Shown here piece by piece: positions 1,784 through 17,848 of a DNA stretch of 17,848 nucleotides. Each line of letters starts with the position of its first letter. The first letter of the stretch is position 1. Origin of the DNA: a virus; the UHGV virus genome UHGV-0189394, one strand, 5' to 3'. Under the pieces are notes generated by a model, which saw only the letters and a list, made by a program, of their open reading frames with translations, did not search any database and had not been told where the DNA came from. Made by a program: the position numbers and the translations under genes.

Positions 1784-2254
1784 ATGCTGAAACTGAATTC
1801 ATTCCGCGATGCGTTAACAGCACATTGCCGGTGGTGTAAAGCCAGTCCGGAAAAATTCACGGTATTCATTGAATCCGGCGGCATTGAAACCACCGGAGAA
1901 TCCCCCTCATTCCTGTACCGCTACAATCTGGTGTTGTTCGTCATGGACTTCACCGAAAGCATCGACAACATCATGCTGCCGGTCATGGCGTGGCTGTACA
2001 GGAATCAGCCGGATCTTCTTCTCAATCCGGAGAAAAACAAAAGCATCAAATTTTCGACGGCCATCAACGATGATGACAGCGCTGACATTCTTCTGGAAAT
2101 CCCGGTATGGGAGCGCGTGATTGTACGCCGCAACGATGACGGCACGGTGAGCGCGGAGCATATCGGTGAGCCACCGGTAAGCCGGGCACTGGAAGCGTGG
2201 CGCGTGGTGTTTGAAGACATGACCTGGAAAACCGCAGAAGAGGCCGGTGCATGA
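1784..2254 (+). CDS. R: tail completion protein, P2 gpR-like
   Basis: 156-aa ORF directly upstream of the S-like and V genes; size and sequence character (e.g. MLPVMAWLYRNQPDLLLNPE) match my recollection of the P2 gpR family. Stop overlaps the next start (ATGA). Confidence 0.7.
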   Translation: MLKLNSFRDALTAHCRWCKASPEKFTVFIESGGIETTGESPSFLYRYNLVLFVMDFTESIDNIMLPVMAWLYRNQPDLLLNPEKNKSIKFSTAINDDDSADILLEIPVWERVIVRRNDDGTVSAEHIGEPPVSRALEAWRVVFEDMTWKTAEEAGA

Positions 2255-2886
2255 GAGACGTTCACGAACTGGATGCCATCTTTCAGGACATTCTTTCAGG
2301 CCTGTCAGCTGCCGGAATTCAGCGCACGGCAATGAGCGTGGGTAAGGCCATCCGGCAGGTACAGACAAAACGCATCAGAAGCCAGGTATCCCCGGACGGT
2401 CAGCCCTGGGAGAAACGAAAACGCCGGATACTGCGCATACAAAAAGGCGTGAAGTTCATCTGGAAAGACGGACAGGTAAGAAACCTGAAAAACTGGAGCA
2501 CATCCCGGGGACGGTTCGGGCGGAAAATTACCGGCTACGATACCGACGCCGGGGGTATCCGGACGTTTTACAAGGCAGATATCGAAGACTATCTGGAAAT
2601 TAACACGCAGCGCGTCGCAGCAAGAGCATCACGTCGCTCACCCATGTTCGAAAAACTGAGAACACCGCGCTTTCTGAAAATCACCCCCGACCCGAGCGGC
2701 GTCAGTGTCGGTTTTCAGGGGCGGGCCGCGCGCATTGCCAGAGTGCACCAGTTCGGTGAGGTGAGCCTTGTCTCGCCCGGAAACGCCACGAAATACCCCG
2801 TGCGCGAACTGCTGGGCCTGAACGCTAAAGACAAACAGCAAATCACGGAAACTGTGATTGCCGGACTGGGGAAAGCTGCGAAATGA
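2251..2886 (+). CDS. S: virion morphogenesis / tail completion protein, P2 gpS-like (extended, 211 aa)
   Basis: Contains QVSPDGQPWEKRK, VHQFGE and VRELLGLNAKD blocks resembling gpS-family motifs; about 60 aa longer than P2 gpS as I recall it. Translationally coupled to R and V. Confidence 0.7.
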   Translation: MRDVHELDAIFQDILSGLSAAGIQRTAMSVGKAIRQVQTKRIRSQVSPDGQPWEKRKRRILRIQKGVKFIWKDGQVRNLKNWSTSRGRFGRKITGYDTDAGGIRTFYKADIEDYLEINTQRVAARASRRSPMFEKLRTPRFLKITPDPSGVSVGFQGRAARIARVHQFGEVSLVSPGNATKYPVRELLGLNAKDKQQITETVIAGLGKAAK

Positions 2887-3464
2887 ACATTGAGCTTATG
2901 CGATTGCTGGAAAACATTGTGCGGATTGGTGTGGTCACGGAAATCAACACCGACACCTGGGAGGTTCGGGTGCAGAGTGGCGGACTGACCACCAACTGGA
3001 TCAGATGGAACAGCGGACGGGCCGGAAAATTCAGAATCTGGATCCCGCCATCACCGGGTGAGCAGGTGCTTCTCCTTTGCCCCGGTGGCAATCCGGAAAC
3101 CGCCGTCAGCGCGGGCAGTCTGTACAGTAATGACAATCCACCACCGGGCGCACTGGAAAACGAAATGGTCATCACCGCACCGGACGGTGCGGAATTTCGC
3201 TATAACGCACAGGAAGGCGACCTGACGGCAAAAGGTATCAAAACCGCAACCATTACGGCCAGAACCAGCATCACGCTGGACACGCCAAGGGTGGAATGCA
3301 CGCAGCACCTGAAGGCAAAAACATTCGAGCTGACCGAAGGCGGGAAGATGACCGGCAACATCACGCACACCGGCGGAAGCCTGACCTCCAACGGTATCAC
3401 GGTGCACAGCCACGTACACGGCGGAGTCAGAAGCGGCGGAGACACAAGCGGAGGTCCACAGTGA
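2883..3464 (+). CDS. V: baseplate assembly protein V (central spike)
   Basis: 193-aa product with GEQVLLLCPGGNPETAV, TLDTPRVECT and THTGGSLTSNGITVHSHVH blocks closely resembling P2 gpV; position directly before W. Confidence 0.9.
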   Translation: MNIELMRLLENIVRIGVVTEINTDTWEVRVQSGGLTTNWIRWNSGRAGKFRIWIPPSPGEQVLLLCPGGNPETAVSAGSLYSNDNPPPGALENEMVITAPDGAEFRYNAQEGDLTAKGIKTATITARTSITLDTPRVECTQHLKAKTFELTEGGKMTGNITHTGGSLTSNGITVHSHVHGGVRSGGDTSGGPQ

Positions 3465-3829
3465 GCATTGACTACACCGGCATGAATCCGCACGGCACGG
3501 GAACCATTTCAGGGCACGAACACCTGAAGAACGCCATCAGGGACATCATCATGACACCTGTCGGAACACGCGTCATGAGACGGGACTATGGCAGCCTGGT
3601 TCCCGGACTCATCGACAGCCCGATGAATGATGTAACCCGCCTTCAGTGCATGAGTGCAGCCGTAATAGCAATCAGCCGCTGGGAGCCGCGCGTGGCCGTG
3701 AGCGCCGTTGATGTGGCGTGGGATAAGCAGGGGCGGGCCATGCTGTCCCTGAACTGCCTGATTGTAAACACCATGGAAAAACTGGAGTTTTCTGTAGAGA
3801 TGGGAGGAAAGGCAGATGCCGGCCATTGA
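3461..3829 (+). CDS. W: baseplate wedge protein W (gp25-like)
   Basis: Frame is open from GTG 3461, which overlaps the V stop (GTGA); an alternative ATG lies at 3482. Product has the TPVGTRVMRRDYGSL block characteristic of gpW/gp25-like proteins. Confidence 0.8.
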   Translation: MSIDYTGMNPHGTGTISGHEHLKNAIRDIIMTPVGTRVMRRDYGSLVPGLIDSPMNDVTRLQCMSAAVIAISRWEPRVAVSAVDVAWDKQGRAMLSLNCLIVNTMEKLEFSVEMGGKADAGH

Positions 3830-4712
3830 TTTATCTGAACTGCCAAAACCGAACGTTATCGAAACGCTGGATTACGAGGTGATACTGGCAGAAACAAAGG
3901 CATTTATCGTCAGCCTTTACCCGGCAGAGATACAGGAAGCCGTCACTGCCGCAATGATGCTGGAATCGGAACCCCTGAACATCATTGCCCAGAGCATGGC
4001 TTTCCGTGAGCTTATTATCCGTCAGAGAATTAACGACGCTGCGGGTGCCATTCTGCTGAGCCATGCGGTATCCACAGACCTGGATCATGTTGCCGCGAAC
4101 CTGAACACCGCTCGCCTGGTCATCACACCGGCAACAGAGACCAGTGATGCCGTTATGGAGAGCGACACCGCCCTGCGTCTTCGGGCGCAGTCTGCCTTTG
4201 ACGGGCTAAGTGTCGCCGGTCCAACAGGCGCATATGAATATTTTGCCCGAAGCGTCAGTGGCAGCATTGCCGACGTGAGGGCAACAAGCCCATCCCCAGC
4301 CCAGGTCACCGTGGCGGTATTATCCACAGAAGGCGACGGTACCGCTTCCGAAGACCTGATCGAAAAGGTCAGAACCGCACTGAGTGCGGAGGACGTCAGA
4401 CCAGTGGGAGACAGGCTTACCGTAAAGAGCGCTGAAATCATCAGCTATCAGATCGACGCCAGACTCTACTTTTATCCGGGCCCGGAATCCGAGCCCATTC
4501 TGAATGCAGCCAAAAGCAACCTGGAAGCGTGGATCAGAGAGCAGAGAAAAATTGGTCGCGATGTTGCGCTTTCCGCCATCATGGCCGTCCTGCATGTGCA
4601 GGGCGTTCAGCGGGTGGAGCTGGTGAAGCCACAACAGAACATTACCGTGAGCGATACGCAGTCGGCATATTGCACTTCATTCACCGTCAGCACCGGGGGA
4701 ACCAATGAATAA
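3816..4712 (+). CDS. J: baseplate assembly protein J
   Basis: 298-aa ORF, size and position match P2 gpJ (~302 aa); overlaps W by 14 nt and I by 8 nt. Confidence 0.85.
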   Translation: MPAIDLSELPKPNVIETLDYEVILAETKAFIVSLYPAEIQEAVTAAMMLESEPLNIIAQSMAFRELIIRQRINDAAGAILLSHAVSTDLDHVAANLNTARLVITPATETSDAVMESDTALRLRAQSAFDGLSVAGPTGAYEYFARSVSGSIADVRATSPSPAQVTVAVLSTEGDGTASEDLIEKVRTALSAEDVRPVGDRLTVKSAEIISYQIDARLYFYPGPESEPILNAAKSNLEAWIREQRKIGRDVALSAIMAVLHVQGVQRVELVKPQQNITVSDTQSAYCTSFTVSTGGTNE

Positions 4713-5238
4713 AGACACTCTGCTTCCCCCTTCCGCCACAGAATTCATACGCAACGCAGAGCGTGGCAGTGAGCGGTTGATGGCGCTGCCCGTCGGTATT
4801 CGTCATCTCTGGGATCCTGACACATGTCCCGTGCAGTTGCTGCCTTATCTGGCATGGGCGCTGTCGGTTGACCGATGGGATCAAAACTGGCCGGAGGAAA
4901 CCAAACGGCAGGTCATTCGCGATTCATGGGATATTCACCGGCATAAAGGCACCATCAAAGCCATTCGCCGGGTTGTTGAGCCATTTGGTTATGTGATCAG
5001 GGTAACCGAATGGTGGGAAACCAACGAAACACCGGGAACATTCCGGCTGGATATCGGCGTACTGGATATCGGGATCACCGAAGAAATGTACAGGGAAGTT
5101 GAACGCCTGGTAGCCGACGCACGTCCGGTCAGTCGCCATCTGATCGGTCTGAACATCATTCAGGACGTACCGGGTTACATGTACACAGGCGGCATCGCCT
5201 ACGACGGCGACATTATTACTGTTTATCCTTCGGAGTAG
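4705..5238 (+). CDS. I: tail/baseplate protein I
   Basis: 177-aa ORF between J and the tail-fibre gene, matching P2 gpI size (~176 aa) and position. Confidence 0.85.
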
Positions 5239-5242
5239 CGCT

Positions 5243-8164
5243 ATGACCGTAAAATTCAAAACCGTAATCACTAAGGACGGTGCAGCAAAAATCGCCGCAG
5301 CAACCGGCACACCGGGAACAAAAATCAACATCACGCACATGGCCGTTGGCGATGGCGACGGCAACTTACCCACGCCTTCATCATCCCAGAAAGCGCTCAT
5401 TCGTGAGGTATGGCGAGGCACACCAAACAAAGTAAGCCCCAACCCCAAAAACCCTGCTGAACTCATTGCTGAACTGGTGATCCCTCCTGAAGCGGGAGGA
5501 TTCTGGATGCGTGAAATGGGCTTGTTCGATGAGGCGGGAACGCTGATTGCCGTATCCAACATGGCAGAAACCTACAAACCGCTACTGTCTGAAGGTTCCG
5601 GCAGGGCGATGACATGCCGCATGGTCCTCATCATCAGCGATGTGAGTGCCGTAAACATCTCCGTTGACAACACCACCATCATGGCAACACAGGATTACGT
5701 CGATGACAAAATCGCTGAACATGAACAGTCGCGCCGACATCCCGACGCCACACTGACCCAGAAAGGCTTCACCCAACTGGACAGCTCGGTAAACAGTAGC
5801 AGTGAGGCGAAAGCTGCAACACCAAAAGCAGTAAAAACACTGAACGATACAAAGGCCCCGCTGAACAGCCCTAAGCTGACCGGAACACCGACTGCCCCCA
5901 CGGCAGCAAAAGGGGTCAACAACACCCAGATAGCGACAACCGCTTACGTGATGGCAGCAATCGCTAATTTAGTGGACTCATCACCGGACGCCCTGAATAC
6001 GCTGAACGAGCTGGCGCAGGCGCTGGGAGATGACCCAAACTTTTCAGCCACCATGACCAACGCACTGGCGGGAAAACAGCCCCTTGATGCAACGCTGACG
6101 GCGATTGCCGCGCTGACCACGGCAGCCGATAAACTGCCTTACTTCACCGGAAACGACAAGGCGGCACTGGCAACACTGACGGAAGTTGGCCGGGACATCC
6201 TCGGAAAGGCAGCCGTCAGTGACGTCATCGCGTATCTGGGGCTCACGAACACCATCACCCAGGCATCAGGCGCACTTCAGAAAGCGCAGAACGGAAAAGA
6301 CATCCCGGACACCGAAGCGTTCCTGGAGAACGTCGGCGTCACCAGTCAGACGTTCATGAAACATAATGGAGAACTGCCTGAAGAGGCTGACCTGAATACC
6401 TATGGCCCGGTTGCTGCCACTCTGGGCACGTGGGGGAAAGCAACGTCAACCAATGCAACGATCGCTAAAAATTTCCCGGAAGACGGTGCGGTGGGCTTTC
6501 TCGAAGTCTTTACTGGAGGAGCTTTTAACGGAACGCAGCGATACACCTGCCGTAACGGTGGAATTTATATCCGGACCCTGACCGCCAGATGGAACGGAAA
6601 AGATGGCCCATGGAGCGCATGGCGTAACGTTCAGATGACCAGCAGAACCCTGAGTCAGGATATTGATCTTGACACCCTGGGGGGAACCGAACATCTGGGG
6701 GTATGGCGTAACGCAGGCGCAGCCAATGCTTCATTCACCAGAAACTACCCGGAAGAAGGTAGTTATGCCCAGGGCGTTCTTGAGGTTATGGAAGGTGGCA
6801 GCTATTCACGCACCCAGCGGTACACTACAGCCAAAGGGAATATGTACATCCGCAGCCTGGCTGCAACATGGGATGCATCTGCCCCGAAGTGGGGAGAATG
6901 GAATAGCGTCGGACATCAACCTGACGGCGCATGGCACGATGGCGACCTGAACACCATGAAAACGCCGGGTATTTACAGCACGACCAACAAGGCCAAAAAC
7001 GGCCCTATGACGGTTACGGACGGGGATAACCTGACAGGGGTCCTTGAGGTCATAAAACGACTGAGTGGTACCGCCTTTATACAGCGCTATACCACCACAG
7101 GAACGGCGACATTAACACGCGGACGTTCTTTTGAAAGAACCTTCAGCGGTGAAGCCTGGACAGAATGGCGGGAAATCTATAACTCGTTCAGCCTGCCGCA
7201 GAATCTGGGCATCGGTGGCGCAGTGGCAAAACTATCCAGTCTGGACTGGCAGACCTACGACTTTGTGCCGGGCAGTCTGATAACCGTGCGGCTTGATAAC
7301 ATGACCAACATTCCCGACGGTATGGACTGGGGCGTCATTGATGGCAACCTGATAAACATCGCGGTTGGTCCGAGTGATGATTCCGGTACGGGGCGCTCAA
7401 TGCATGTATGGCGCAGCACTGTGAGTAAAGCGAATTACCGCTTTTTTATGGTGCGTATTTCAGGAAATCCGGGAAGCCGCACGATCACAACAAGACGAGT
7501 ACCAATCATTGACGAAGCCCAGACATGGGGCGCGAAACAGACATTCAGTGCTGGCCTTTCAGGTGAATTATCCGGCAACGCCTCCACTGCAACAAAATTA
7601 AAAACCGGGCGTAAGATTAACGGCGTCACGTTTGATGGCACCGCCAATATAGAGGCATTCCCTCCGGGGGTTCCCTTACCATGGCCATCAGACACCCCGC
7701 CTTCAGGCTATGCCATTATGCAGGGGCAAACCTTCGACAAGGCAAAATACCCGAAACTTGCCATCGCCTACCCGTCAGGAAAACTGCCTGATATGCGGGG
7801 ATGGACAATCAAAGGGAAACCAGCCAGCGGTCGGGCGGTATTATCACAGGAGCAGGACGGTATTAAATCGCATACCCATACGGCCAGCGTATCAAATACC
7901 GATCTGGGGTCGAAAACGACCAGTTCATCAGGCTCAGGATCAGGCACCGCATCAGTAATACAGGGGACAGCATCCCCTGAAGGTAGCGGAGACTGGACGG
8001 CGTACGGTCCAGGAAGTGGGTCAACAATTACTGTAACTATGCCCAGTCACACCCACACCGTGGCACTGGGCTCACACGGGCACGGCGTGACCGTTAACGC
8101 CACAGGCAACACAGAAAACACCGTGAAAAATATTGCGTTTAACTACATCGTGAGGCTTGCATAA
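5243..8164 (+). CDS. H: tail fibre protein (mosaic: P2 gpH-like N-terminus, repeat-containing shaft, lambda Stf / Mu S-like receptor-binding tip)
   Basis: 973-aa ORF with GGAG 8 nt upstream. N-terminal ~150 aa is P2 H-like; C-terminus has GWTIKGK...HTHTA...[16 protein letters not shown]...[12 protein letters not shown], resembling the conserved tip of lambda Stf-type side tail fibres. Confidence 0.9.
6388..7183 (+). repeat. three tandem protein-level repeats (~85-90 aa each) inside the tail-fibre gene
   Basis: Units begin near nt 6388 (DLNTYGP...[29 protein letters not shown]...W..W), 6659 (DIDLDTLGG...[29 protein letters not shown]...W..W) and 6939 ([11 protein letters not shown]...GVLEVIKRL...QRYTTTG...W..W). 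Nucleotide sequences have diverged; unit boundaries are approximate. Confidence 0.6.
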
Positions 8165-8910
8165 TGACCTTTACAATGAAAGACGAAGCCAGAACGCTAC
8201 GGGTATTTCATATTCACCCGGAAACCAGCGAACTGACCGGCGAAAGCGACGTATATATTCCACCGCATACCGGGCTGCCCGCTGGTTGCACAACTACCGA
8301 ACCGCCACATATCCCGGAAGGGTTCGCGGCACTTTTTGATGAGGTTCGCCAGCGCTGGGAACTCGCCGAAGATCACCGGGGGAAAGTGGTGTGGGAGACA
8401 ACATCCGGGAATGAAATCACAATAACTGAAATCGGACCGCTGCCTGAAAACACAACAACCGTGGCCCCGCCAACAGCCGCAGGAAAGTTTATTGATGGCG
8501 AATGGAAAGAAGATCGCAGTCTGGCAATCAGTATAAAAAATAACGAGATAAACGAATGGCGTAACGCCATGGAATCTGCAAATTACGTTTTCACGTTCAA
8601 TGGCCGCAACTGGGATTACGGAAAAGAAACCCAGTCCCGACTGGAACCATCAGTGGCAGCCGCAAAGTCCGGGTTATTACCGGAGGGATTTTTCTGGACG
8701 GATGCCGATAACAACGATATCCCGGTTACCGCAGATGAATTGATCGCACTGAGCAATGCTGCATCTGCTGCAATGTTTACCAAAGGAATGGAAATACATA
8801 TCCGGCAACGGGAAATGAAAAAAGCCATAGAGGAATTACAGGACCCCGGAGAAATCATGGCATACCCGGTGGGATGGAAAACAGACACCGCAGAAGGTGA
8901 CGACGAGTGA
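8164..8910 (+). CDS. tfa: tail fibre assembly protein / chaperone (lambda Tfa-like N-terminal domain, non-canonical C-terminal domain)
   Basis: Start overlaps the H stop (TAATGA). N-terminal ~100 aa (GESDVYIPPHTGLPAG, EDHRGKVVWETTSGNEITITEIGPLPEN) closely resembles lambda Tfa; the C-terminal ~140 aa does not resemble the usual Tfa C-terminus as I recall it. Confidence 0.75.
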   Translation: MTFTMKDEARTLRVFHIHPETSELTGESDVYIPPHTGLPAGCTTTEPPHIPEGFAALFDEVRQRWELAEDHRGKVVWETTSGNEITITEIGPLPENTTTVAPPTAAGKFIDGEWKEDRSLAISIKNNEINEWRNAMESANYVFTFNGRNWDYGKETQSRLEPSVAAAKSGLLPEGFFWTDADNNDIPVTADELIALSNAASAAMFTKGMEIHIRQREMKKAIEELQDPGEIMAYPVGWKTDTAEGDDE

Positions 8911-8915
8911 AAGTT

Positions 8916-8942
8916 AAAACGCCCGACTGACGGGCGTTTTTA
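8916..8942. terminator. bidirectional rho-independent terminator between convergent tfa and U
   Basis: aaaa-ACGCCCG-actga-CGGGCGT-ttttt: GC-rich 7-bp stem flanked by an A tract on one side and a T tract on the other, lying between the tfa stop (8910) and the U stop (8943). Confidence 0.8.
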
Positions 8943-9416
8943 TTATCTTACCAGTGTCAGTGCAGAGCTGACGCCGGACTTGATATTATTTGTCAGATCC
9001 CCCAGAGATGAAGACTGAAGGCGCTCACGCAAATCTTCATTCACACGCTCAAAGGTCACCGTAAACTCAATCTTCCGGGCCTTGCCATAGCGATCAAGCT
9101 CTGAGCGCGTGGTATTCAGCGCGGTGATAACGTACATACCGTAAATCTGACCAACACCATCAATCAGCGGCCAGGGACGCCCCGCATACGCCTGAGTTGT
9201 CAGCGCCGTGAGCGAGACTTCACCGCCTGTTATTTCCGGGTAGAGAAGACCGGAAAGCGTGATGGTATCGTCCCCCGCACCGATATACTGCCAGCTTGCC
9301 GAGCGGTTGATCCGCTCGTTCTTCACATGACGCCAGTTACGGGACTGCTGTATCTGCTGGTGTGGCAGCGTGCTTAACTGAAAAACAAACATGCCGTAAA
9401 TCATCATCATAACCAT
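8943..9416 (-). CDS. U: tail protein U
   Basis: Product (..MMMIYGMFVFQLSTLPHQQ...WPLIDGVGQIYGMYVI...KIEFTVTFERV) resembles P2 gpU. The track ORF starts at GTG 9419; I place the start at ATG 9416, but ATGs at 9410-9404 are equally possible (AGGAG lies just upstream). Confidence 0.8.
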   Translation of the reverse strand: MVMMMIYGMFVFQLSTLPHQQIQQSRNWRHVKNERINRSASWQYIGAGDDTITLSGLLYPEITGGEVSLTALTTQAYAGRPWPLIDGVGQIYGMYVITALNTTRSELDRYGKARKIEFTVTFERVNEDLRERLQSSSLGDLTNNIKSGVSSALTLVR

Positions 9417-9421
9417 CACTC

Positions 9422-12307
9422 CTAATCACGATCGCGGAAGCTGTTCATACCGCCGACTTGTCTGCGAATTTCTTCCCGTACCGCCTCCCCCACCATTCTG
9501 GCAAGGTCGCGCGGATTCTGCGTAACCACGTTATGAAGGTGAACGTGAATTTCCCCATCAAACACAGGCGACGGCGCAGGAGCAGATGCACGCGATGCAG
9601 CACCCGATGATGGAGAAACCGGTGCCCACTGCTTAACCTCCACAGGACGGGAAGTATCCGGGGAAACAACCGGAGACACGGGTGAAAGCGCTGGCACAGG
9701 CGGAAGTACGGGGGCAACAGTCGGTTCATTCCACTGCCCACGAACGGCCAGCGCGCGGGGGAGATTTTTAAACACGATATCGCCGGGGCCGATACGCTTA
9801 CGGGCTTCCTGAAGCATACCCGACGTATTGCCTTCGATACCCTTGAGCCTGCGAAGAACGCCACTGGTACCGTCATTTATTCCCGGAGGATTACCACCTT
9901 TGGGATCCACGCCCCCCGTATTACCGCCAGCCACCGGTTTGCCCTTCCCTGCGTTATCACTGGTGGCAGATTCAGCCATACTGGGGGACCATGCCTTCTG
10001 AACCATTTTTTTCTGAACAGGGTCCCACTCCCACATAACCGGAGCCTTTGCAACTGCCTCAGCACGATTTTTCGCCCGCTCAACTTCAGAGGGGAGCACG
10101 CCGAGTTTTTCCAGCACCCATGCCAGGCCGTCCATCAGAGCCTGAAGAGGAGTAAGCGCAAGCGATATCGCCCCGCTGAGCACGCGACCAAAAGTTTCCC
10201 CGGCCGATGTACACCGTTCAAGAGATTCATTACTGGCCTGAACCGGCGTGAGCAACCGGGTAAACCAGTCGAACACCGTGGACACCGCACCCGATACCAG
10301 ATCAAACAGCGGCGCAAACTGAGCAATACTTTCACGAACAGGCGCAAGGCCAGCCCACAGCGCCCGGAATGTGCCGAGCATGAAGGCCTTAACCTGTTCC
10401 CAGTGACGCCATATGAGCAGCGCCCCACCGGCAAGGGCAGCAATCACGAGACCAACAGGACTGAGAAGACCGGCAAGCGCCCCGCCCAGCACCGAAAACG
10501 CACCGGATACCATCCCCCACAGTGCCGGAAGTCCGGACAGGCGAAGGACAAGACCACTGACGCCGGTTGCAACGGAGGAAAGTCCGCCACCAAGAAGCGC
10601 AGAGCCAAGCTGAAGTTTTGCAAAAACCCCCGTCAGCAATCCACCACCGACAGACAGCGCGCCTATGGCCGTTGTGGCCGCAAGCACGCCCCCCACGGTA
10701 AGGGTCAGTGTGCGTACAAGCTGTGGGTTTTCCTGAATCCACGACCTGAAACGTTCGCCCACAGAAGCAACAGCCTGTACAAGCTCGCGGATATCATCAG
10801 TAACCAGCGACACAACATCACTGCGTATACCGGAGAAGACGCCAGACAGACGATCGGCATCACCGCCGAGGTTATCCCGCAGGACATCCCCCATTCGCCG
10901 GGCGGTTCCCTGAACCTGTCCCATACGGTCTGATACCGTTGCCAGCGAGCGGAGAAAATCCGGGATCTGGTCAACGGCAAGATCTTCAATGGGTGTGCCG
11001 AACAGCGCTATCGCCGCATTAGCCCGTTCTGCCGGATCCTGAATCTTCAGCAGCCCGGCAGCCGTTCGCTGCATTGCCTCGCGTGCAGCTGCGCCTCCGC
11101 TGGCAATCGCTGACGACATTCTTTCAGCGTTAAGGCCAATCAGCTCATAGGCCTCAACGCTTGCTTTGGACATATCCGAGCCGCGAATACTGAATTCCTT
11201 GACGGCATCGCCGGTTTTATCCAGGGCGAATTTTCCCTGCTGTGCCATGCTGACAAGCAGCGTCATGGTTTCAGAGCCGGAAAGCCCCATATTGCGGAAG
11301 TGCGTGGAATACTCATGCAGAATTTCAGGAAGTTCAGCGCGCATTTCGGCAGACATTTTCTGCATCCCTGCCGCCATCAGGTCGACCGCCTCCCCGGCAT
11401 TTGCGGCAAGCCCGTTTTTCAGCATGATTCCGGCAGCCTGAACCTGTTCAGCCACACTACCGCCGGTGACCTGAGCAAGATCCAGCGCCTGACGTGTCAC
11501 CCGTTCGAGCTCTTCAGTCCCCACCGTACCCAGTGCGCCAAGCGTGCTTTGCGTCGCAGCTGCCGCCTCTGAAATCATTGCGATATCCGTTGCGACACCT
11601 GACGCCCGGATATTCTGAATCATCCGGCTGTAGCGCTGCCCGTCCTCCGCACTGCCGCCACTCTGTGCCGCAATAAGCGCGCCCTGCCGTTGCTCTTCAA
11701 CAACAGGCGCAACCGCATGTCCGGCGGCGTACAGACCAGCACTGCCCGCCGCCATGGCAACCGCTCCGCGCTGGCTGAGTTTACCGGCGATATCCTGAAC
11801 ACGATCGTAACGTTGCTGTGCCTGCGTGACGCGCGCAAGCTGAGCCTGCTGGCGTTCAAGCTGATCGTTGTATTCCTGCGTTCGCCTGATTGCTTCCTCC
11901 ACAGCGCGGTTACTTCCGTCAGCCCGTATGCCGTGAGCTTCCAGTTCGCGACCGGCCTCCCGTAATCGGGACTGGTGAAGGGAGTACACAGTATTAAGGC
12001 GCTCAACCTTTGCGGTCAGCGCCCTGAGAGTTTCCTGCTGCTTTTCCGTCAGTGCTGTGCCGGTGCGCTGTGCTTCCTGAAGGCGCTGAAGTCGCGCACG
12101 CGCATCATTCAGACTGTTTTCAGTCGAAGCGACCTGCTGACGGGCACGGGAAAACGCATCACTGCTTCGCTGGAGTGACTTAAGCGCGTTCTGTGTGGAC
12201 GAAAGGGATTCAGAAAGCGCGCCGGTCATTTCCCGGGCGCGCCTGACAGGTTGGGTGAGACGGTCGACCGCAGTGAGGGCTACACGTATCTGGAGATTAT
12301 TACTCAT
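9422..12307 (-). CDS. T: tail tape measure protein T
   Basis: Long ORF between E/E' and U with an Ala/Gly-rich hydrophobic central region typical of tape measure proteins. Start placed at ATG 12307-12305 (MSNNLQ...), which overlaps the E' stop; the track's GTG at 12361 would lie inside E'. Confidence 0.85.
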   Translation of the reverse strand: MSNNLQIRVALTAVDRLTQPVRRAREMTGALSESLSSTQNALKSLQRSSDAFSRARQQVASTENSLNDARARLQRLQEAQRTGTALTEKQQETLRALTAKVERLNTVYSLHQSRLREAGRELEAHGIRADGSNRAVEEAIRRTQEYNDQLERQQAQLARVTQAQQRYDRVQDIAGKLSQRGAVAMAAGSAGLYAAGHAVAPVVEEQRQGALIAAQSGGSAEDGQRYSRMIQNIRASGVATDIAMISEAAAATQSTLGALGTVGTEELERVTRQALDLAQVTGGSVAEQVQAAGIMLKNGLAANAGEAVDLMAAGMQKMSAEMRAELPEILHEYSTHFRNMGLSGSETMTLLVSMAQQGKFALDKTGDAVKEFSIRGSDMSKASVEAYELIGLNAERMSSAIASGGAAAREAMQRTAAGLLKIQDPAERANAAIALFGTPIEDLAVDQIPDFLRSLATVSDRMGQVQGTARRMGDVLRDNLGGDADRLSGVFSGIRSDVVSLVTDDIRELVQAVASVGERFRSWIQENPQLVRTLTLTVGGVLAATTAIGALSVGGGLLTGVFAKLQLGSALLGGGLSSVATGVSGLVLRLSGLPALWGMVSGAFSVLGGALAGLLSPVGLVIAALAGGALLIWRHWEQVKAFMLGTFRALWAGLAPVRESIAQFAPLFDLVSGAVSTVFDWFTRLLTPVQASNESLERCTSAGETFGRVLSGAISLALTPLQALMDGLAWVLEKLGVLPSEVERAKNRAEAVAKAPVMWEWDPVQKKMVQKAWSPSMAESATSDNAGKGKPVAGGNTGGVDPKGGNPPGINDGTSGVLRRLKGIEGNTSGMLQEARKRIGPGDIVFKNLPRALAVRGQWNEPTVAPVLPPVPALSPVSPVVSPDTSRPVEVKQWAPVSPSSGAASRASAPAPSPVFDGEIHVHLHNVVTQNPRDLARMVGEAVREEIRRQVGGMNSFRDRD

Positions 12308-12847
12308 CGTTATGATTCCCGGTTCTGGCAGCCGCCCGCTCTCGCCAGGCAACAACCTCACCAGGACTCATACCGAATATCTCTGCGGGCGACCAGTTAA
12401 AGACAACAGCGATATCAGCGACAAGCTCTTCGATATCGTCAAACAGGAGACGAATTACATCACACCTGTATTCGTCTTTTTCTTGCCGGGCAAGGCCTTC
12501 GGCGAGAAAAAATACGTTGCCGCCGTGGAAAGCGCCCCGAAATCCTCCGTGCGCATGGTCGACAGTTCCGCTTCAGTAAGGCGGGGCTCTGTAACACGAG
12601 CGAGATAAACGCACATCGCGTTAAAGTTCAGGCTGTACAGGTGAGCCAGAGACAGACCACGCAGCGAACCACTCTGACGGGCACGCTCGCCAATCTTCAC
12701 ATGTGTAATAATCTGTTCGCCACGGATGACCGGGTTTGTTAATTCAATGAGCTCACCGTTATAGGCAACCTCATTACCATCAGCAGCATCGAAGTCGTCG
12801 ACGTTATCAGCACCGACAACCGGCATTTCGTTTTGTTTTTTTGACAT
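12300..12847 (-). CDS. tail assembly chaperone E+E' (predicted -1 programmed frameshift product)
   Basis: Slippery heptamer T TTT TTC on the - strand (12512-12506) at codons 112-114 of E. Hand translation of the -1 frame from 12506 gives a 68-codon extension (LAEGLARQEKDEYRCDVIRLLFDDIEELVADIAVVFNWSPAEIFGMSPGEVVAWRERAAARTGNHNDE) ending TAA 12302-12300, overlapping the T start. Confidence 0.6.
12455..12847 (-). CDS. E: tail assembly chaperone E
   Basis: 130-aa ORF with AGGAG 9 nt upstream of ATG 12847; sits between FII and T as in P2 and contains a slippery run near its 3' end. Confidence 0.8.
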   Translation of the reverse strand: MSKKQNEMPVVGADNVDDFDAADGNEVAYNGELIELTNPVIRGEQIITHVKIGERARQSGSLRGLSLAHLYSLNFNAMCVYLARVTEPRLTEAELSTMRTEDFGALSTAATYFFSPKALPGKKKTNTGVM

Positions 12848-12892
12848 TGTGAAATTCTCCTGGCGGCCACACGACCGCCGTCAGTCAGTTAA

Positions 12893-13405
12893 TCAGCCAA
12901 GCCCCAGCATGGAGCGGGTGCGGTCAGGCAACACATCCTTGCCATCAACGCGCCAGATGAAGTTCAGCACGTCGATTTCAATAACATCGCTGTTATCAAC
13001 GCTGAGCTTGTACCAGGTGCATTTCATCGCGTAGGTATGTTCGGTATCCTCACCCTGTTTGGCTTCGCCCTTGTCGATTTCGACAATGCGCCCACGGGCT
13101 TCAATATCGACGTACTCAATACCCTCTTCGGAATAGTATTCACCCGAGAAGCGCACACGTACCGCATCAATGCCTGCGGCATATTTGGCAAAGATGTGAC
13201 GGTCCACGCCGCCAACCGCAAAGGAGAGATCCAGCGCACCGTCATCAAGCCCGAGATCCACCGCCGCAGAGCCTGGCATACCCGCACCGCGATACGCTTC
13301 AGTCTTGCGGGTCAGCTTGGGCGGAGTGAAGGAGGTCACCTTACCCAGCTTGTTGTCACCGTCCACAAAGACGGTAAACACACGAAGTTTTTTTGGCACG
13401 GCCAT
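12893..13405 (-). CDS. FII: tail tube protein FII
   Basis: 170-aa ORF (P2 FII ~172 aa); its start overlaps the FI stop (TGATG). Confidence 0.9.
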   Translation of the reverse strand: MAVPKKLRVFTVFVDGDNKLGKVTSFTPPKLTRKTEAYRGAGMPGSAAVDLGLDDGALDLSFAVGGVDRHIFAKYAAGIDAVRVRFSGEYYSEEGIEYVDIEARGRIVEIDKGEAKQGEDTEHTYAMKCTWYKLSVDNSDVIEIDVLNFIWRVDGKDVLPDRTRSMLGLG

Positions 13406-14610
13406 CAGTTACCCCCTCCCAGAGATGCAAAAGCAGAACTGAAGAACTCGTCAGTAAACGTCTGATAGAGTTCCATGCACTCCATAGGCGGAACAGGGGT
13501 GTATTTGTAGCGAATACGCACAATACCCTGACGAAGGCTGGTTGTGTCGTTGTCGATGATATCGAACCAGCATTCCGCCCCGATAAGTTTTCCGGCCGTG
13601 ACCAGCGCATCCAGTTTTGCCTTGATAGCGCTTACCGCATCCTTCGCGTTGGCTGGCGTCAACGGTGAATCCACCACCTGAAGCTGTGCCTCTGCGATAC
13701 CGTCAGCCAGTTGTTGCGCCGTACGGGTGTACACCTCAAAGATATACTCCGCCGTTTCCGGCGTACGGTTCCCCCAGAAACGGAAGGAGCCGTCACCCTG
13801 GTGAATAATCGTCGTCACCTCACTGCTGTTCAGCGTGTTGGCATCGCTGTTTTCATCCTGAAGCGACCAGGAAACCGACGCAGAGATCCCGAGAACATTC
13901 TTCACAGGGATGTTTGAAAGAGAGCGATGCCAGCCCTGTTCGTGGTCGATTCGGGCACGAAGACCGCACGCATACGCCGCAGCCGGGAAAGTTTCGCTTT
14001 TACCGGATGCAGGGTTGAACGCCGTGAAATCAGGCCACAGAAGCATGATTTCACGCCCGGAAATCTTTTTGCGGAATGCAATGGCATCGGACGGTTTTGT
14101 ACATGCCGGGCAGCCGGAATACGCAAAAGCGCGCATTTTGCCCGCAATCGTCACCAGTGCCGCCGTAACGGCCTCGGACTCAAGACCGGGTGCCGCCAGG
14201 ATACGCGGACGACAGCCAATCCCTTCCATCTGTTCAGCAACCAGAAGAGCCTGCATCCCCGTGTAACTGCCATCAGCCTCCACGGTACCAATAACAAGCT
14301 GGTCCTGATTCTTCCCTCCCTCGGTGTCTTCCTCCTCTTTGGCTTCAGCGACACGCACGACGATAACGCGCGTGCTGACCTGATCGGAGATAGCCTTAAG
14401 AGATTTGTAGAGCGTCCCCTTTGTGCCAGCCTTACCCAGAACATTATTGACTCGTGTTAACAGCACCGGCGTGTCAAGCGGGAACTGCTCTTCATCAGCA
14501 TCATCTGCAACAGCAATAATCCCAATGACACTGGAATCAACGTCATTAATTGCCGTCACCAGATCGGTGTTTTCCCTGACGCGCACACCGTGAAATCGCG
14601 TTTCAGCCAT
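13405..14610 (-). CDS. FI: contractile tail sheath protein FI
   Basis: ~400-aa ORF resembling P2 gpFI. Start placed at ATG 14610 (MAETRFHGVRV..., GGTGA 5 nt upstream) rather than the track's ATG 14622, which has no RBS. Confidence 0.9.
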   Translation of the reverse strand: MAETRFHGVRVRENTDLVTAINDVDSSVIGIIAVADDADEEQFPLDTPVLLTRVNNVLGKAGTKGTLYKSLKAISDQVSTRVIVVRVAEAKEEEDTEGGKNQDQLVIGTVEADGSYTGMQALLVAEQMEGIGCRPRILAAPGLESEAVTAALVTIAGKMRAFAYSGCPACTKPSDAIAFRKKISGREIMLLWPDFTAFNPASGKSETFPAAAYACGLRARIDHEQGWHRSLSNIPVKNVLGISASVSWSLQDENSDANTLNSSEVTTIIHQGDGSFRFWGNRTPETAEYIFEVYTRTAQQLADGIAEAQLQVVDSPLTPANAKDAVSAIKAKLDALVTAGKLIGAECWFDIIDNDTTSLRQGIVRIRYKYTPVPPMECMELYQTFTDEFFSSAFASLGGGN

Positions 14611-14685
14611 ACGATTCACCATCAGTTATGTTTAAGCTCGCCTGAATAATCCACTACTGGCGCGCAGCCTTCACGTGATGCGGGT

Positions 14686-14703
14686 TGTGGGGATTTTTTT
14701 ACA
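14686..14703. promoter_or_regulatory. Ogr/Delta-type late-promoter activator box (TGT-N12-ACA) in the divergent FI / D intergenic region
   Basis: Seen directly: TGT ggggattttttt ACA, with exactly 12 nt between the half-sites. It lies ~57 bp upstream of a GATGAT -10-like hexamer (14739-14744) before the D RBS (GGGAGGGG) and ATG 14764, and ~85 bp from the FI start on the other strand. Confidence 0.5.
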
Positions 14704-14763
14704 ACATAGCCGGACAGAAACGACAGGGTACGCGTGGGATGATACGCACACGGGAGGGGCATC

Positions 14764-15909
14764 ATGAGTATCACTGAATCAGTAACACATCACATCAACA
14801 GCGCACTGGATGCAGCGGAAGACACAGTGAGGGTACCGGACTTCACTATCACACTGGAAGGAAAAGATGCCAGCCTGAAGAACATCACGCAGCGCATCAT
14901 GAGCCTCACCATGACAGACAACAGGGGTTTTGAGGCTGACAGGGTGACGCTGGAAATCGACGACGCCGACGGCGAGGTGGTACTTCCGGAACGTGGAACA
15001 AGATTATCTCTGTCTCTGGGATGGAAAGGTGAAAGCCTCACACACAAAGGGACGTTCGTTGTGGATGAAGTCGCGCACGACGGGCCACCGGATAAGCTGA
15101 CCATCTCCGCGAACAGCGCGGATTTTCGCGAAGAGTTTAACGTAAAACGCGAAGTCTCATGGCATGACGTGACCGTTGAGCGTGTGGTGTCTGCCATCGC
15201 CCACCGTTACGGACTGAAAGCCCAAATCAGCGAAATGTTGATGAACATCGAAATCGACCATGCCGACCAGACAGAGGAAAGTGATATGTCATTCCTAACG
15301 CGCATGGCTGACATGCTGGGTGCAATAGCCACCGTAAAAAACGGGTGCCTGCTGTTCATTCTGCCGGGTGGTGGTGTGACGGCCAGCGGTCACGCCCTCC
15401 CCTCTTTCTCCCTGACCCGTTCGGATGGCGACAGCCACCGGTTCCGCATTGCTGACAGACAGGCCTACACCGGGGTGAAGGCTTACTGGCTGGATTTAAA
15501 GTTCGGTCAGAAGAAGGCCGTGAACGTGAAAAAGCGAAACGCGCAAACCACGCAGAAGCCGGAGAAAAGCAGTTCACGGGAGGGCGGATACATGGAAGGC
15601 GCAGAAGGCAACGTGTATGTGCTGAGAAGAACCTACCCGAACGAAGAGGCCGCGCGTCGCGCAGCTGCCGCACGCTGGCAGCAACTTCAGCGGGGCGCAG
15701 CGGAATTCAGCATCACGCTGGCGCGCGGACGCGCCGACCTGTATCCGGAGATGCACGGCACGGTATCCGGGTTCAAGAGCGACATTGACAATCAGGACTG
15801 GATTATTTCGCGCATTGAACACGTCATCGACGACAGCGGCTTCACCACCAGACTGGAGCTGGAAGCAAAAATCGCAGACTGGATAGCAGAGAGTAACACG
15901 ACTGGCTAG
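14764..15909 (+). CDS. D: tail protein D (late control gene D family; gp27/VgrG-like baseplate hub)
   Basis: 381-aa ORF (P2 gpD ~387 aa) with a strong RBS, immediately upstream of ogr as in P2. Confidence 0.85.
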   Translation: MSITESVTHHINSALDAAEDTVRVPDFTITLEGKDASLKNITQRIMSLTMTDNRGFEADRVTLEIDDADGEVVLPERGTRLSLSLGWKGESLTHKGTFVVDEVAHDGPPDKLTISANSADFREEFNVKREVSWHDVTVERVVSAIAHRYGLKAQISEMLMNIEIDHADQTEESDMSFLTRMADMLGAIATVKNGCLLFILPGGGVTASGHALPSFSLTRSDGDSHRFRIADRQAYTGVKAYWLDLKFGQKKAVNVKKRNAQTTQKPEKSSSREGGYMEGAEGNVYVLRRTYPNEEAARRAAAARWQQLQRGAAEFSITLARGRADLYPEMHGTVSGFKSDIDNQDWIISRIEHVIDDSGFTTRLELEAKIADWIAESNTTG

Positions 15910-15950
15910 AATGAGCGCGAGCCCACCCCGTTTCAGCCAGGGGGACCATC

Positions 15951-16253
15951 ATGCATCCTTGCCCATACTGCGGAGCAAGCACCCGCACCAGAACAAGCCG
16001 CAACGCCAACGACACAGGAACAATCAGGGAGAAATACTATCAGTGCAACAACATTGAATGCAGCGCAACCTTTGTGACTCACGAGTTTGTCGTGAGAACC
16101 GTATGCCGTCCGCAACCCACCGAAGAACGGGGAATTATTCCCGCAGACGCCTTCAAAGCATGTCACCGGGGGAGGGATCAACTCAGCCTTCCCCTGGGCG
16201 ATTGCGCCTCCCAGTCAAAAACTGTACATTACGCGCGGGTGCCTTTCGGCTGA
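15951..16253 (+). CDS. ogr: Ogr/Delta-family zinc-finger late transcription activator
   Basis: N-terminus MHPCPYCGASTRTRTSRNANDTGTIREKYYQCNNIECSATF has the C-x2-C...C-x4-C arrangement and surrounding residues of P2 Ogr; GGGGGA RBS upstream. The 100-aa ORF is longer than P2 Ogr (72 aa). Confidence 0.8.
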   Translation: MHPCPYCGASTRTRTSRNANDTGTIREKYYQCNNIECSATFVTHEFVVRTVCRPQPTEERGIIPADAFKACHRGRDQLSLPLGDCASQSKTVHYARVPFG

Positions 16254-16382
16254 CGGCTGGAAGGATTACCTGAAGGCCGGATGTGGAAAGGCCCCGAGTC
16301 AACTAAACGTTAACCCGAGGCCCTAACCATCTACCATAAGCAAGTGATAGGTTAGCGCCTCTCCAACAAAGGAGCAAGCGCT

Positions 16383-16523
16383 ATGTCGCAAAAATCGCTT
16401 ATGGCCATCACGTTCTGCGTGACGGCAATCCTCATCATCTGGATGTTACATGGTTCGCTGTGTGAAATACGGATGAACATATGGGGAGCGGAGTTTGCGG
16501 CGTTCCTACAGTGTAAACAGTAA
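16383..16523 (+). CDS. Hok/Gef-family type I toxin-like small membrane protein (46 aa)
   Basis: ATG 16383 with AGGAG 9 nt upstream, stop TAA 16521-16523. Product MSQKSLMAITFCVTAILIIWMLHGSLCEIRMNIWGAEFAAFLQCKQ has one TM helix followed by SLCEIR and a later AAF block, matching the Hok family signature as I recall it (R1 Hok ...SLCEIR...VAAFMAYE). Confidence 0.55.
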   Translation: MSQKSLMAITFCVTAILIIWMLHGSLCEIRMNIWGAEFAAFLQCKQ

Positions 16524-16616
16524 GGAAACCGCGACGGGGGAGTAATCCCCCGTCAATCGGTTGCCAGGGTAAAGCCGAAAGTAGCACCCTCACACGCAAG
16601 TCACAAAGAAAAACAA

Positions 16617-16647
16617 AGCCCGCAGCGTAAAAACTGCGGGCTTTTTT
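16617..16647 (+). terminator. rho-independent terminator
   Basis: AGCCCGCAG-cgtaaaaa-CTGCGGGCT followed by TTTTTT, ~95 nt downstream of the hok-like ORF. Confidence 0.75.
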
Positions 16648-16852
16648 GTATTCACATTTCGAAGATGTGGTCACTGCGTGGACACAGAGCGATGAAAATC
16701 CTTTCAAATCACAATGTTAACTAATTTTTTTCATTCATCAACAAGGATTTTCACGTTTGTGTTACCTGTATGAGACGAGAGTTAACCGGACAAGTGTGCC
16801 ATAATCTCGCGGCCAGGCATACTTGCGAAGATTTCAGGTATAAGGATACGTA

Positions 16853-17848
16853 ATGATACAACCTATTTCCGGCCCTCCTCCTGGGCAACCACCAGGTCAG
16901 GGAGATAACCTGCCGTCTGGCGCGGGCAATCAGCCTTTATCCAGTCAGCAACGTACTTCGCTGGAAAGCTTAATGACGAAAGTGACCTCACTGACGCAAC
17001 AACAAAGAGCAGAACTGTGGGCGGGTATCAGGCACGATATTGGTCTGTCGGGAGATTCACCGCTGCTTTCGCGTCACTTCCCTGCCGCTGAGCATAATCT
17101 GGCGCAACGTCTGCTGGCCGCGCAAAAAAGCCATTCTGCCCGCCAGCTTTTAGCGCAATTAGGGGAGTATTTACGTCTGGGGAATAATCGTCAGGCGGTC
17201 ACGGATTATATCCGTCATAACTTTGGTCAGACGCCGCTGAATCAGCTCTCACCGGAGCAATTAAAAACCATTCTCACCCTGTTGCAGGAAGGGAAGATGG
17301 TTATTCCGCAACCACAGCAGCGCGAGGCGACCGACCGTCCTTTATTACCGGCGGAGCACAATGCGCTAAAACAGCTGGTGACCAAACTTGCGGCGGCAAC
17401 GGGGGAACCCAGCAAACAGATCTGGCAATCGATGCTGGAACTTTCCGGGGTGAAAGATGGCGAGTTAATTCCAGCGAAACTGTTTAACCATCTGGTGACC
17501 TGGTTGCAGGCGCGCCAGACGTTAAGCCAGCAAAATACGCCGACGCTGGAATCACTACAGATGGCGCTAAAACAACCTTTAGATGCCAGTGAACTGGCGG
17601 CGTTATCGGCATATATCCAGCAAAAATATGGCCTTTCTGCGCAATCATCGCTTTCTTCTGCCCAGGCCGAGGATATTCTTAATCAGCTTTATCAACGGCG
17701 GGTTAAAGGGATTGATCCGCGTGATATGCAACCGCTGCTTAATCCTTTTCCACCGATGATGGACACGTTGCAAAATATGGCAACGCGTCCCGCGCTGTGG
17801 ATACTGTTAGTCGCGATTATCCTGATGCTGGTCTGGCTGGTTCGTTAG
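16853..17848 (+). CDS. flk: flagellar regulator Flk-like protein (host chromosomal gene)
   Basis: 331-aa ORF with TAAGGA RBS; Pro/Gln-rich N-terminus (MIQPISGPPPGQPPGQ...) and a single C-terminal transmembrane anchor (ALWILLVAIILMLVWLVR), matching enterobacterial Flk as I recall it. Complete gene, stop TAG 17846-17848. Confidence 0.7.
   Translation: MIQPISGPPPGQPPGQGDNLPSGAGNQPLSSQQRTSLESLMTKVTSLTQQQRAELWAGIRHDIGLSGDSPLLSRHFPAAEHNLAQRLLAAQKSHSARQLLAQLGEYLRLGNNRQAVTDYIRHNFGQTPLNQLSPEQLKTILTLLQEGKMVIPQPQQREATDRPLLPAEHNALKQLVTKLAAATGEPSKQIWQSMLELSGVKDGELIPAKLFNHLVTWLQARQTLSQQNTPTLESLQMALKQPLDASELAALSAYIQQKYGLSAQSSLSSAQAEDILNQLYQRRVKGIDPRDMQPLLNPFPPMMDTLQNMATRPALWILLVAIILMLVWLVR

Follow-up and report, generated by a model that had tools for sequence, protein, structure and literature searches.

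In the 17,848-nucleotide stretch of the virus genome UHGV-0189394 analyzed here (the window), the tail-gene operon FI-FII-E/E'-T-U (the F operon) lies on the minus strand, while the tail-fiber operon before it and the D and ogr genes after it lie on the plus strand. The window holds the right-hand portion of a P2-like (Peduoviridae) prophage and then host DNA. It is very probable that this layout is a lineage trait, produced by one fixed inversion of the F operon that carried along the dyad of its late promoter, which would now serve both directions. The sequences show the gene order, how it is distributed, that it arose once, and a conserved promoter-like anatomy; from them we infer that the late activator Ogr binds the dyad and that both promoters fire. 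The lineage is deep and Enterobacterales-wide, and includes Xuanwuvirus (P88), Novemvirus (phiT5282H) and Senquatrovirus (SEN4/5).

The genes of the block were identified by Pfam matches. On the minus strand it starts with the tail sheath protein gpFI (open reading frame, ORF, 13405-14622; PF04984/PF22671/PF17482), whose conserved start MAETRF, by comparison with annotated relatives, is ATG 14610 and not 14622. The tail tube protein gpFII (12893-13405; PF04985, E 3e-49), gpE (12455-12847), its -1 frameshift extension E' (12303-12512; PF06528, Phage_P2_GpE, E 3.6e-14), the tape measure protein gpT (ORF 9422-12361; PF10145) and the tail protein gpU (8943-9419; PF06995, E 6e-41), the final gene of the block, follow on the same strand. 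The E ORF (12455-12847) has no Pfam match and is named from its position and from the annotation of the Escherichia coli MSB1_4I prophage described below. The programmed E/E' frameshift is intact, with the slippery sequence TTTTTTC at 12506-12512 and E' in the -1 frame after it. Inspection of start codons gives ATG 12307, which overlaps the E' stop, as the probable start of gpT, within an ORF extending to 12361. On the plus strand the baseplate hub protein gpD (14764-15909; PF05954) is split from U as the first gene of its own transcription unit, and the gene of an Ogr/Delta-type zinc-finger late activator of 100 amino acids (15951-16253; PF04606, E 6e-16) begins 41 bp after it. All components of a P2-like tail module are present (FI, FII, the chaperones E/E' with the -1 frameshift, T, U, D, and Ogr/Delta after D); what is missing is the co-directional FI to U to D order of P2, as FI-U are on the minus strand and D-ogr on the plus strand.

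The P2 RefSeq record presents FI-FII-E-T-U-D-ogr as co-directional from pF, with U abutting D, in agreement with the P2 order, D straight after U, given in a preliminary description of the window. That description also placed the sheath-to-U block on the strand opposite to that in P2, converging on the tail-fiber operon at a bidirectional terminator and diverging from D-ogr, so that D is uncoupled from U. The strand assignment is borne out by the Pfam matches and the P2 record, as are the divergence from D-ogr and the separation of D from U, and the convergent junction does hold a hairpin (8916-8940) that folds on both strands.

The distribution of the inverted order was surveyed in 80 loci from IMG/VR and 80 from GTDB species genomes, fetched by D-protein alignment and classed by local tblastn. 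The inverted order holds at every locus where D reaches 57% identity or more with the window D (116/116), the canonical P2 order at every locus where this identity is at most 55% (44/44), and the 160 loci contain no exceptions. None of 120 clade members has the opposite orientation. The layout of the window matches loci L001, L002, L003, L166 and L168, and its FI/D spacer of 141 bp falls within the 98-163 bp of the clade, which places it in the lineage. In a synteny comparison with P2-like references, as proposed in the preliminary description, the window is inverted relative to the annotated P2, Fels-2 and phiCTX, all of canonical order, and shares its exact order with Enterobacter phage phiT5282H (Novemvirus), the Escherichia phages PhiR44_2 and P88 (the latter a Xuanwuvirus) and Salmonella phage SEN5 (Senquatrovirus), as found by megablast and tblastn of phage records. 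E. coli MSB1_4I, whose chromosome is closed, carries a complete prophage with the same order plus full head and lysis genes, ~90% identical to window 1784-16654.

The hosts of the inverted set extend across the Enterobacterales: Escherichia, Salmonella, Citrobacter, Klebsiella, Enterobacter, Kosakonia, Serratia, Yersinia and Hafnia, and also Erwinia, Pantoea, Brenneria, Pectobacterium, Edwardsiella, Providencia, Morganella, Xenorhabdus and Photorhabdus. The sheath gene of the xenorhabdicin xnp1 locus apparently lies beside the variable fiber region, as in the canonical order; the inverted loci of Xenorhabdus and Photorhabdus are therefore probably prophages other than xnp1. A Firmicute-labelled contig (L093, NZ_JBQPOM010000071.1, 'Vagococcus sp. 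WN89Y') carries an enterobacterial-type P2-like prophage with a D 71% identical to the window D, and is probably contamination or a mislabelled assembly. The Burkholderia phages KS5 and KL3 do not carry the inversion and have D-U-T on one strand. Within E. coli, a 1.1-kb FI/D junction probe has matches in 1572 of 5426 complete genomes, and among 12 evenly spaced rows of the ranking, about 9 have a match that covers the sheath gene as well as D. As an estimate from the sampled rows and not a count, this suggests that the FI/D junction is present in ~1,100-1,300 complete E. coli genomes, roughly one fifth.

The rooted gene trees address how often the inversion arose. Rooted on phiCTX, the neighbor-joining trees of D, FI, FII and U each recover the inverted set, with the window in it, as monophyletic (stem branch lengths 0.085-0.128), which points to one old fixed inversion underlying the clade. 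The outgroups phiCTX and Burkholderia KS5/KL3 are canonical, so the P2 order is the likelier ancestral state. A recent inversion limited to this strain or prophage has nothing to recommend it beyond the difference from P2, and we give it next to no credence: the trait is common to phages whose D proteins match that of the window at no more than 57-76% identity and whose hosts are Enterobacterales-wide, and four genes each recover the inverted set as monophyletic. The preliminary description had named the same arrangement in close relatives as the sign of a lineage trait rather than a rearrangement of this genome, and such relatives are what the survey returned. Its preference for a fixed rearrangement or distinct lineage over a switchable segment is thereby supported on the side of the distinct lineage.

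The trees of J and I have a different topology. For these genes the inverted set is not monophyletic, and inverted and canonical phages are up to 88-92% identical. As J and I ignore the inverted/canonical split, the baseplate and fiber module is, judged by these trees, exchanged between lineages, and the F block and D travel together. Within fiber gene H, the DNA of window 7157-7928 is 83-92% identical to the fiber genes of numerous canonical P2-like phages from E. coli and Yersinia, a similarity to those phages that the window does not have outside this segment; it looks like a mosaic exchange of the receptor-binding part.

The two ends of the block were inspected for signs of how it is bounded. 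Between the stops of the G-position gene (which ends at 8910) and U, the terminator scan and folding identify the hairpin at 8916-8940, AAAACGCCCG-actga-CGGGCGTTTT, with folding energies of -17.4 kcal/mol (plus strand, z -4.6) and -16.2 kcal/mol (minus strand, z -4.1). Hairpins rich in GC and flanked by A/T-rich sequence occur within ~200 bp past the U 3' end in at least 63 of 109 inverted relatives, and their sequences are unrelated. No inverted repeats were found that pair the 8900-8950 junction with the 14610-14770 junction, and tblastn with the P88 and Fels-2 invertases as queries found no invertase homologue in the window, which agrees with the preliminary description, where neither a recombinase gene nor flanking inverted repeats had been seen.

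A misassembly, in which an assembler flipped the 5.7-kb block and the true genome has the P2 order, had been raised in the preliminary description as the alternative. It draws only on the prior expectation from P2. The identical order recurs in 116 independent loci, which come from different assemblies and hosts, and likewise in closed E. coli chromosomes and in separately sequenced genomes of isolated phages. Both junctions are conserved and functional-looking, one with a terminator and the other with a length-constrained spacer containing a dyad and two -10-like elements, and there are no junction repeats on which an assembler could flip the block. This distribution, together with the conserved functional anatomy at both junctions, leaves a misassembly with a negligible probability.

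The same junctions bear on whether the block could be a switchable segment inverted by a site-specific recombinase, as are the fiber segments of Mu, P1 and Fels-2. Invertase-driven inversions are common beside P2-like fiber genes, and some relatives, such as P88, do have a DNA invertase gene at the fiber/U junction. The Gin/Cin/Hin-type segments (Mu G, P1 C, Fels-2, P88) resemble the present case in being inverted DNA beside tail-fiber genes of a contractile-tailed temperate phage, but they are short and flanked by crossover sites, adjoin an invertase and occur in both orientations. The window block has neither invertase nor bracketing inverted repeats, and a single orientation holds in all 120 clade members. 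An invertase lies between H and U in just 9 of 82 inverted loci, where it serves fiber switching. Moreover, since the block carries its own promoter, a flip would not switch its expression in the manner of an invertible fiber segment. We regard a switchable segment as exceedingly improbable.

Late promoters that depend on Ogr/Delta have a -10 element, lack a good -35 and carry a partial dyad, TGT-N12-ACA, whose center lies ~55 bp upstream of the start; Ogr activates them through the alpha subunit of RNA polymerase. As D is on the other strand from U, it needs its own promoter in the spacer. The divergent FI/D control region (14623-14763) has a perfect dyad GTTGT-N12-ACAAC, whose TGT-N12-ACA core at 14686-14703 is centered at 14694.5, at a distance of 69.5 bp from the ATG of D and 84.5 bp from that of FI (14610). 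The hexamers GATTAT (minus strand, 14646-14651) and GATGAT (14739-14744) sit 44-49 bp to either side of this center, and for this reason the predicted starts fall ~55-56 bp from it, near 14639 (minus, FI operon) and near 14750 (plus, D-ogr), as placed by geometry. This spacer geometry equals that of the divergent late promoters pP and pO in the P2 record, where a single activator site (3057-3087) serves starts at 3016 and 3127, 55-56 bp on each side. A scan of the spacer found no sigma-70 consensus promoter, as expected for late promoters, which are activator-dependent.

The anatomy is conserved across relatives. The FI-D spacer measures 98-163 bp in 116 of 120 loci, and 98 of the 106 unique spacers contain T[GC]T-N12-ACA (shuffles: mean 5.2, max 12). 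An alignment of 42 representatives, less than 80% mutually identical and anchored on the dyad, reveals conservation of the half-sites, of CACG at 19-24 bp from the center on the FI side, and of an xAxxAT hexamer at 44-49 bp from the center on both sides, with TG-n ahead of the D-side copy; the N12 between the half-sites varies freely. The D start codon keeps a median distance of 69 bp from the dyad center. MSB1_4I serves as an internal control: its terminase/scaffold and FI/D spacers have one central site each, near-identical and both with GTTCTTACAACA. Over the whole window TGT-N12-ACA occurs 3 times (4.1 expected), not above chance, so the argument from the dyad rests on its position and its conservation across relatives. 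In canonical relatives the dyad lies 78-83 bp upstream of the FI ATG, compared with ~84 bp in the window. From this distance, the inverted clade appears to have retained the geometry of the F promoter (PF), which puts the inversion breakpoint just past the activator site.

Two further features concern the coding and promoter calls around D. A 50-aa ORF (14622-14774, minus strand) runs through the window spacer, and the P88, PhiR44_2 and SEN5 records annotate a short hypothetical coding sequence (CDS) there; because conservation in the spacer is motif-like and not codon-like, these small CDS calls are probably spurious. Downstream, a TAGAAT -10-like hexamer (15907-15912) overlaps the D stop codon, and a TAnAAT-like element ~35-40 bp upstream of the ogr ATG recurs in most of 50 representatives aligned on the ogr start, which suggests that ogr keeps its own promoter, in parallel with the separate ogr promoter of P2.

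The mechanism that would account for these observations can be outlined. In an ancestor of the lineage, the stretch of the F operon between its late promoter and the end of U flipped a single time and became fixed. The PF promoter and its putative Ogr-binding dyad would have moved with the block and ended back to back with D, and the inverted operon would now terminate at the hairpin shared with the tail-fiber operon. One putative Ogr-bound dyad would then activate FI-FII-E/E'-T-U leftward and D-ogr rightward, which a single site can do because the dyad is symmetric, as at the P2 P/O promoters. We lean, with some reserve, toward the further idea that this symmetry is what made the inversion viable: the flip would have instantly created a second bidirectional late promoter like P/O, and would have given ogr feedback from a late promoter in addition to its own promoter.

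The only live alternative accepts the lineage trait as described but gives D-ogr a separate, Ogr-independent promoter (constitutive or differently regulated), with the dyad serving FI only. The dyad-FI geometry is inherited from the canonical PF, so that FI alone could explain its conservation; a start at +55 implies a very short D leader of ~13 nt; and ogr has a conserved -10-like element of its own. Against this, the conserved TG-n-xAxxAT at 41-49 bp from the center on the D side mirrors the FI side, the D start codon is held at its median 69 bp, and the spacer has no sigma-70 consensus promoter. P2 already runs two divergent late promoters off one site and has a leaderless V transcript, and D, an essential tail gene, has to be expressed late. 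We judge a separate D promoter to be unlikely, though well ahead of a recent inversion, a misassembly or a switchable segment.

Several points weigh against the reading of one fixed inversion with a shared dyad. The survey was seeded with D and took the 80 best loci per collection, so it is not a sample of all Peduoviridae. The trees carry no bootstrap values, and the ancestral state is drawn from few outgroups only (phiCTX and KS5/KL3). In about half of the spacers the left half-site reads TCT and not TGT, and the T[GC]T-N12-ACA pattern is missing from 8 of 106. The predicted starts are placed by analogy with P2.

Phages with the inverted order are functional. P88 is inducible and plaque-forming, with a burst size of ~65 and a 137-nm contractile tail by electron microscopy (PMC5285337). 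PhiSM of Citrobacter rodentium, related here by D identity, is temperate and active (PMC6456863), electron microscopy shows SEN4/5 to be a myovirus (PMC5261728), and the related Serratia prophage PP4/KSP20 releases particles (PMC9826266). On this evidence, splitting D from U is compatible with tail assembly.

The plus-strand genes from 1784 to 8910 are not inverted, and the MSB1_4I prophage has them in identical order: R (1784-2254), S (2251-2886), V (2883-3464), W (~3482-3829), J (3816-4712), I (4705-5238), fiber gene H (5243-8164) and, in place of the P2 fiber-assembly gene G, the gene of a DUF4376 protein (8164-8910). Their Pfam matches are PF06891, PF05069, PF04717/PF18715, PF04965, PF04865, PF09684, PF12571 and PF14301. 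As S overlaps V, a single late operon may comprise R-S-V-W-J-I-H together with the gene at the G position. Another good dyad, GTTGT-N12-ACAA (1596-1613), lies 170-190 bp upstream of R in a small DUF1378 ORF (1538-1705); the equivalent gap in MSB1_4I has only an imperfect TGT-N12-AGA (11876-11893). Just upstream of the tail genes, a plus-strand ORF (45-1421) encodes a 458-aa protein with a SASA (sialate O-acetylesterase-like) domain and DUF6645, which could act on host surface sugars. At its place MSB1_4I has a 645-aa DUF6645 protein, and the gene is cargo-like.

At the other end, a 46-aa Hok/Gef-family toxin ORF (16383-16523, plus strand) follows ogr and is 52% identical to the annotated copy of MSB1_4I; at gathering thresholds Rfam returned nothing in the window, including no hok/sok-type RNA. 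A strong two-way hairpin terminator lies at 16615-16644, similarity to related prophages ends at ~16654, and the host gene flk follows the prophage end (flank 16853-17848). The record of Escherichia phage 500465-2 has the same host flank near flk, 96% identical, which suggests that it shares its insertion site with the window prophage. A tail-only tailocin, considered on account of the host flk DNA from ~16655, was rejected: the window starts within the prophage, and MSB1_4I has head, lysis and tail genes.

The inverted arrangement is already known in the sense that it is visible in public annotated records of phages classified by the ICTV, and the window is an ordinary member of a known P2-like lineage. 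The literature we searched, which covers the field in part and includes the P88, PhiSM, SEN4/5 and Serratia PP4 papers, contains no explicit comment on the inversion, nor, within the same partial coverage, a description of a shared FI/D control region. As ICTV-classified genera of Peduoviridae share the inverted order, the P2 order is a feature of P2 and not a requirement of the family. P2 is thus not the sole template of gene order for Peduoviridae, which is a caution for annotation: annotation and quality-control pipelines that flag the inverted order as a rearrangement or misassembly would err for a lineage present in about one fifth of complete E. coli genomes. The modest addition made here is a predicted bidirectional FI/D late promoter with a single symmetric activator site, which, if true, would be a simple testable case of an operon inversion tolerated because its regulatory site is a dyad.

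The closest known phages include those of the P88 type. The annotated order and strands of P88 and PhiR44_2 are identical to its own, with fiber genes (+), U-T-E'-E-FII-FI (-) and D (+). D is ~72% identical to the window D in P88, PhiSM, PhiR44_2 and 500465-2 (72-73% for PhiR44_2). The nucleotide similarity of these P88-type phages to the window is patchy. P88 differs in having an extra invertible fiber segment and a DNA invertase between the fiber genes and U, both of which the window lacks. phiT5282H and SEN4/5 (D 72.5% and 61% identical, respectively) are more distant, with other hosts and other fiber genes, but they share the inverted F block, D-ogr divergent from FI, and a central T[GC]T-N12-ACA in the spacer. 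With P2 itself, whose D is 49% identical to that of the window, the tail gene set, the E/E' frameshift, the Ogr activator and late-promoter dyads are held in common. The slippery site is TTTTTTG in P2 and TTTTTTC at the equivalent place in the window; P2 has R and S in the O operon and V under its own promoter, whereas S overlaps V in the window; and the F block and D-ogr, which form one unit in P2, are here an inverted F block and a separate D-ogr unit.

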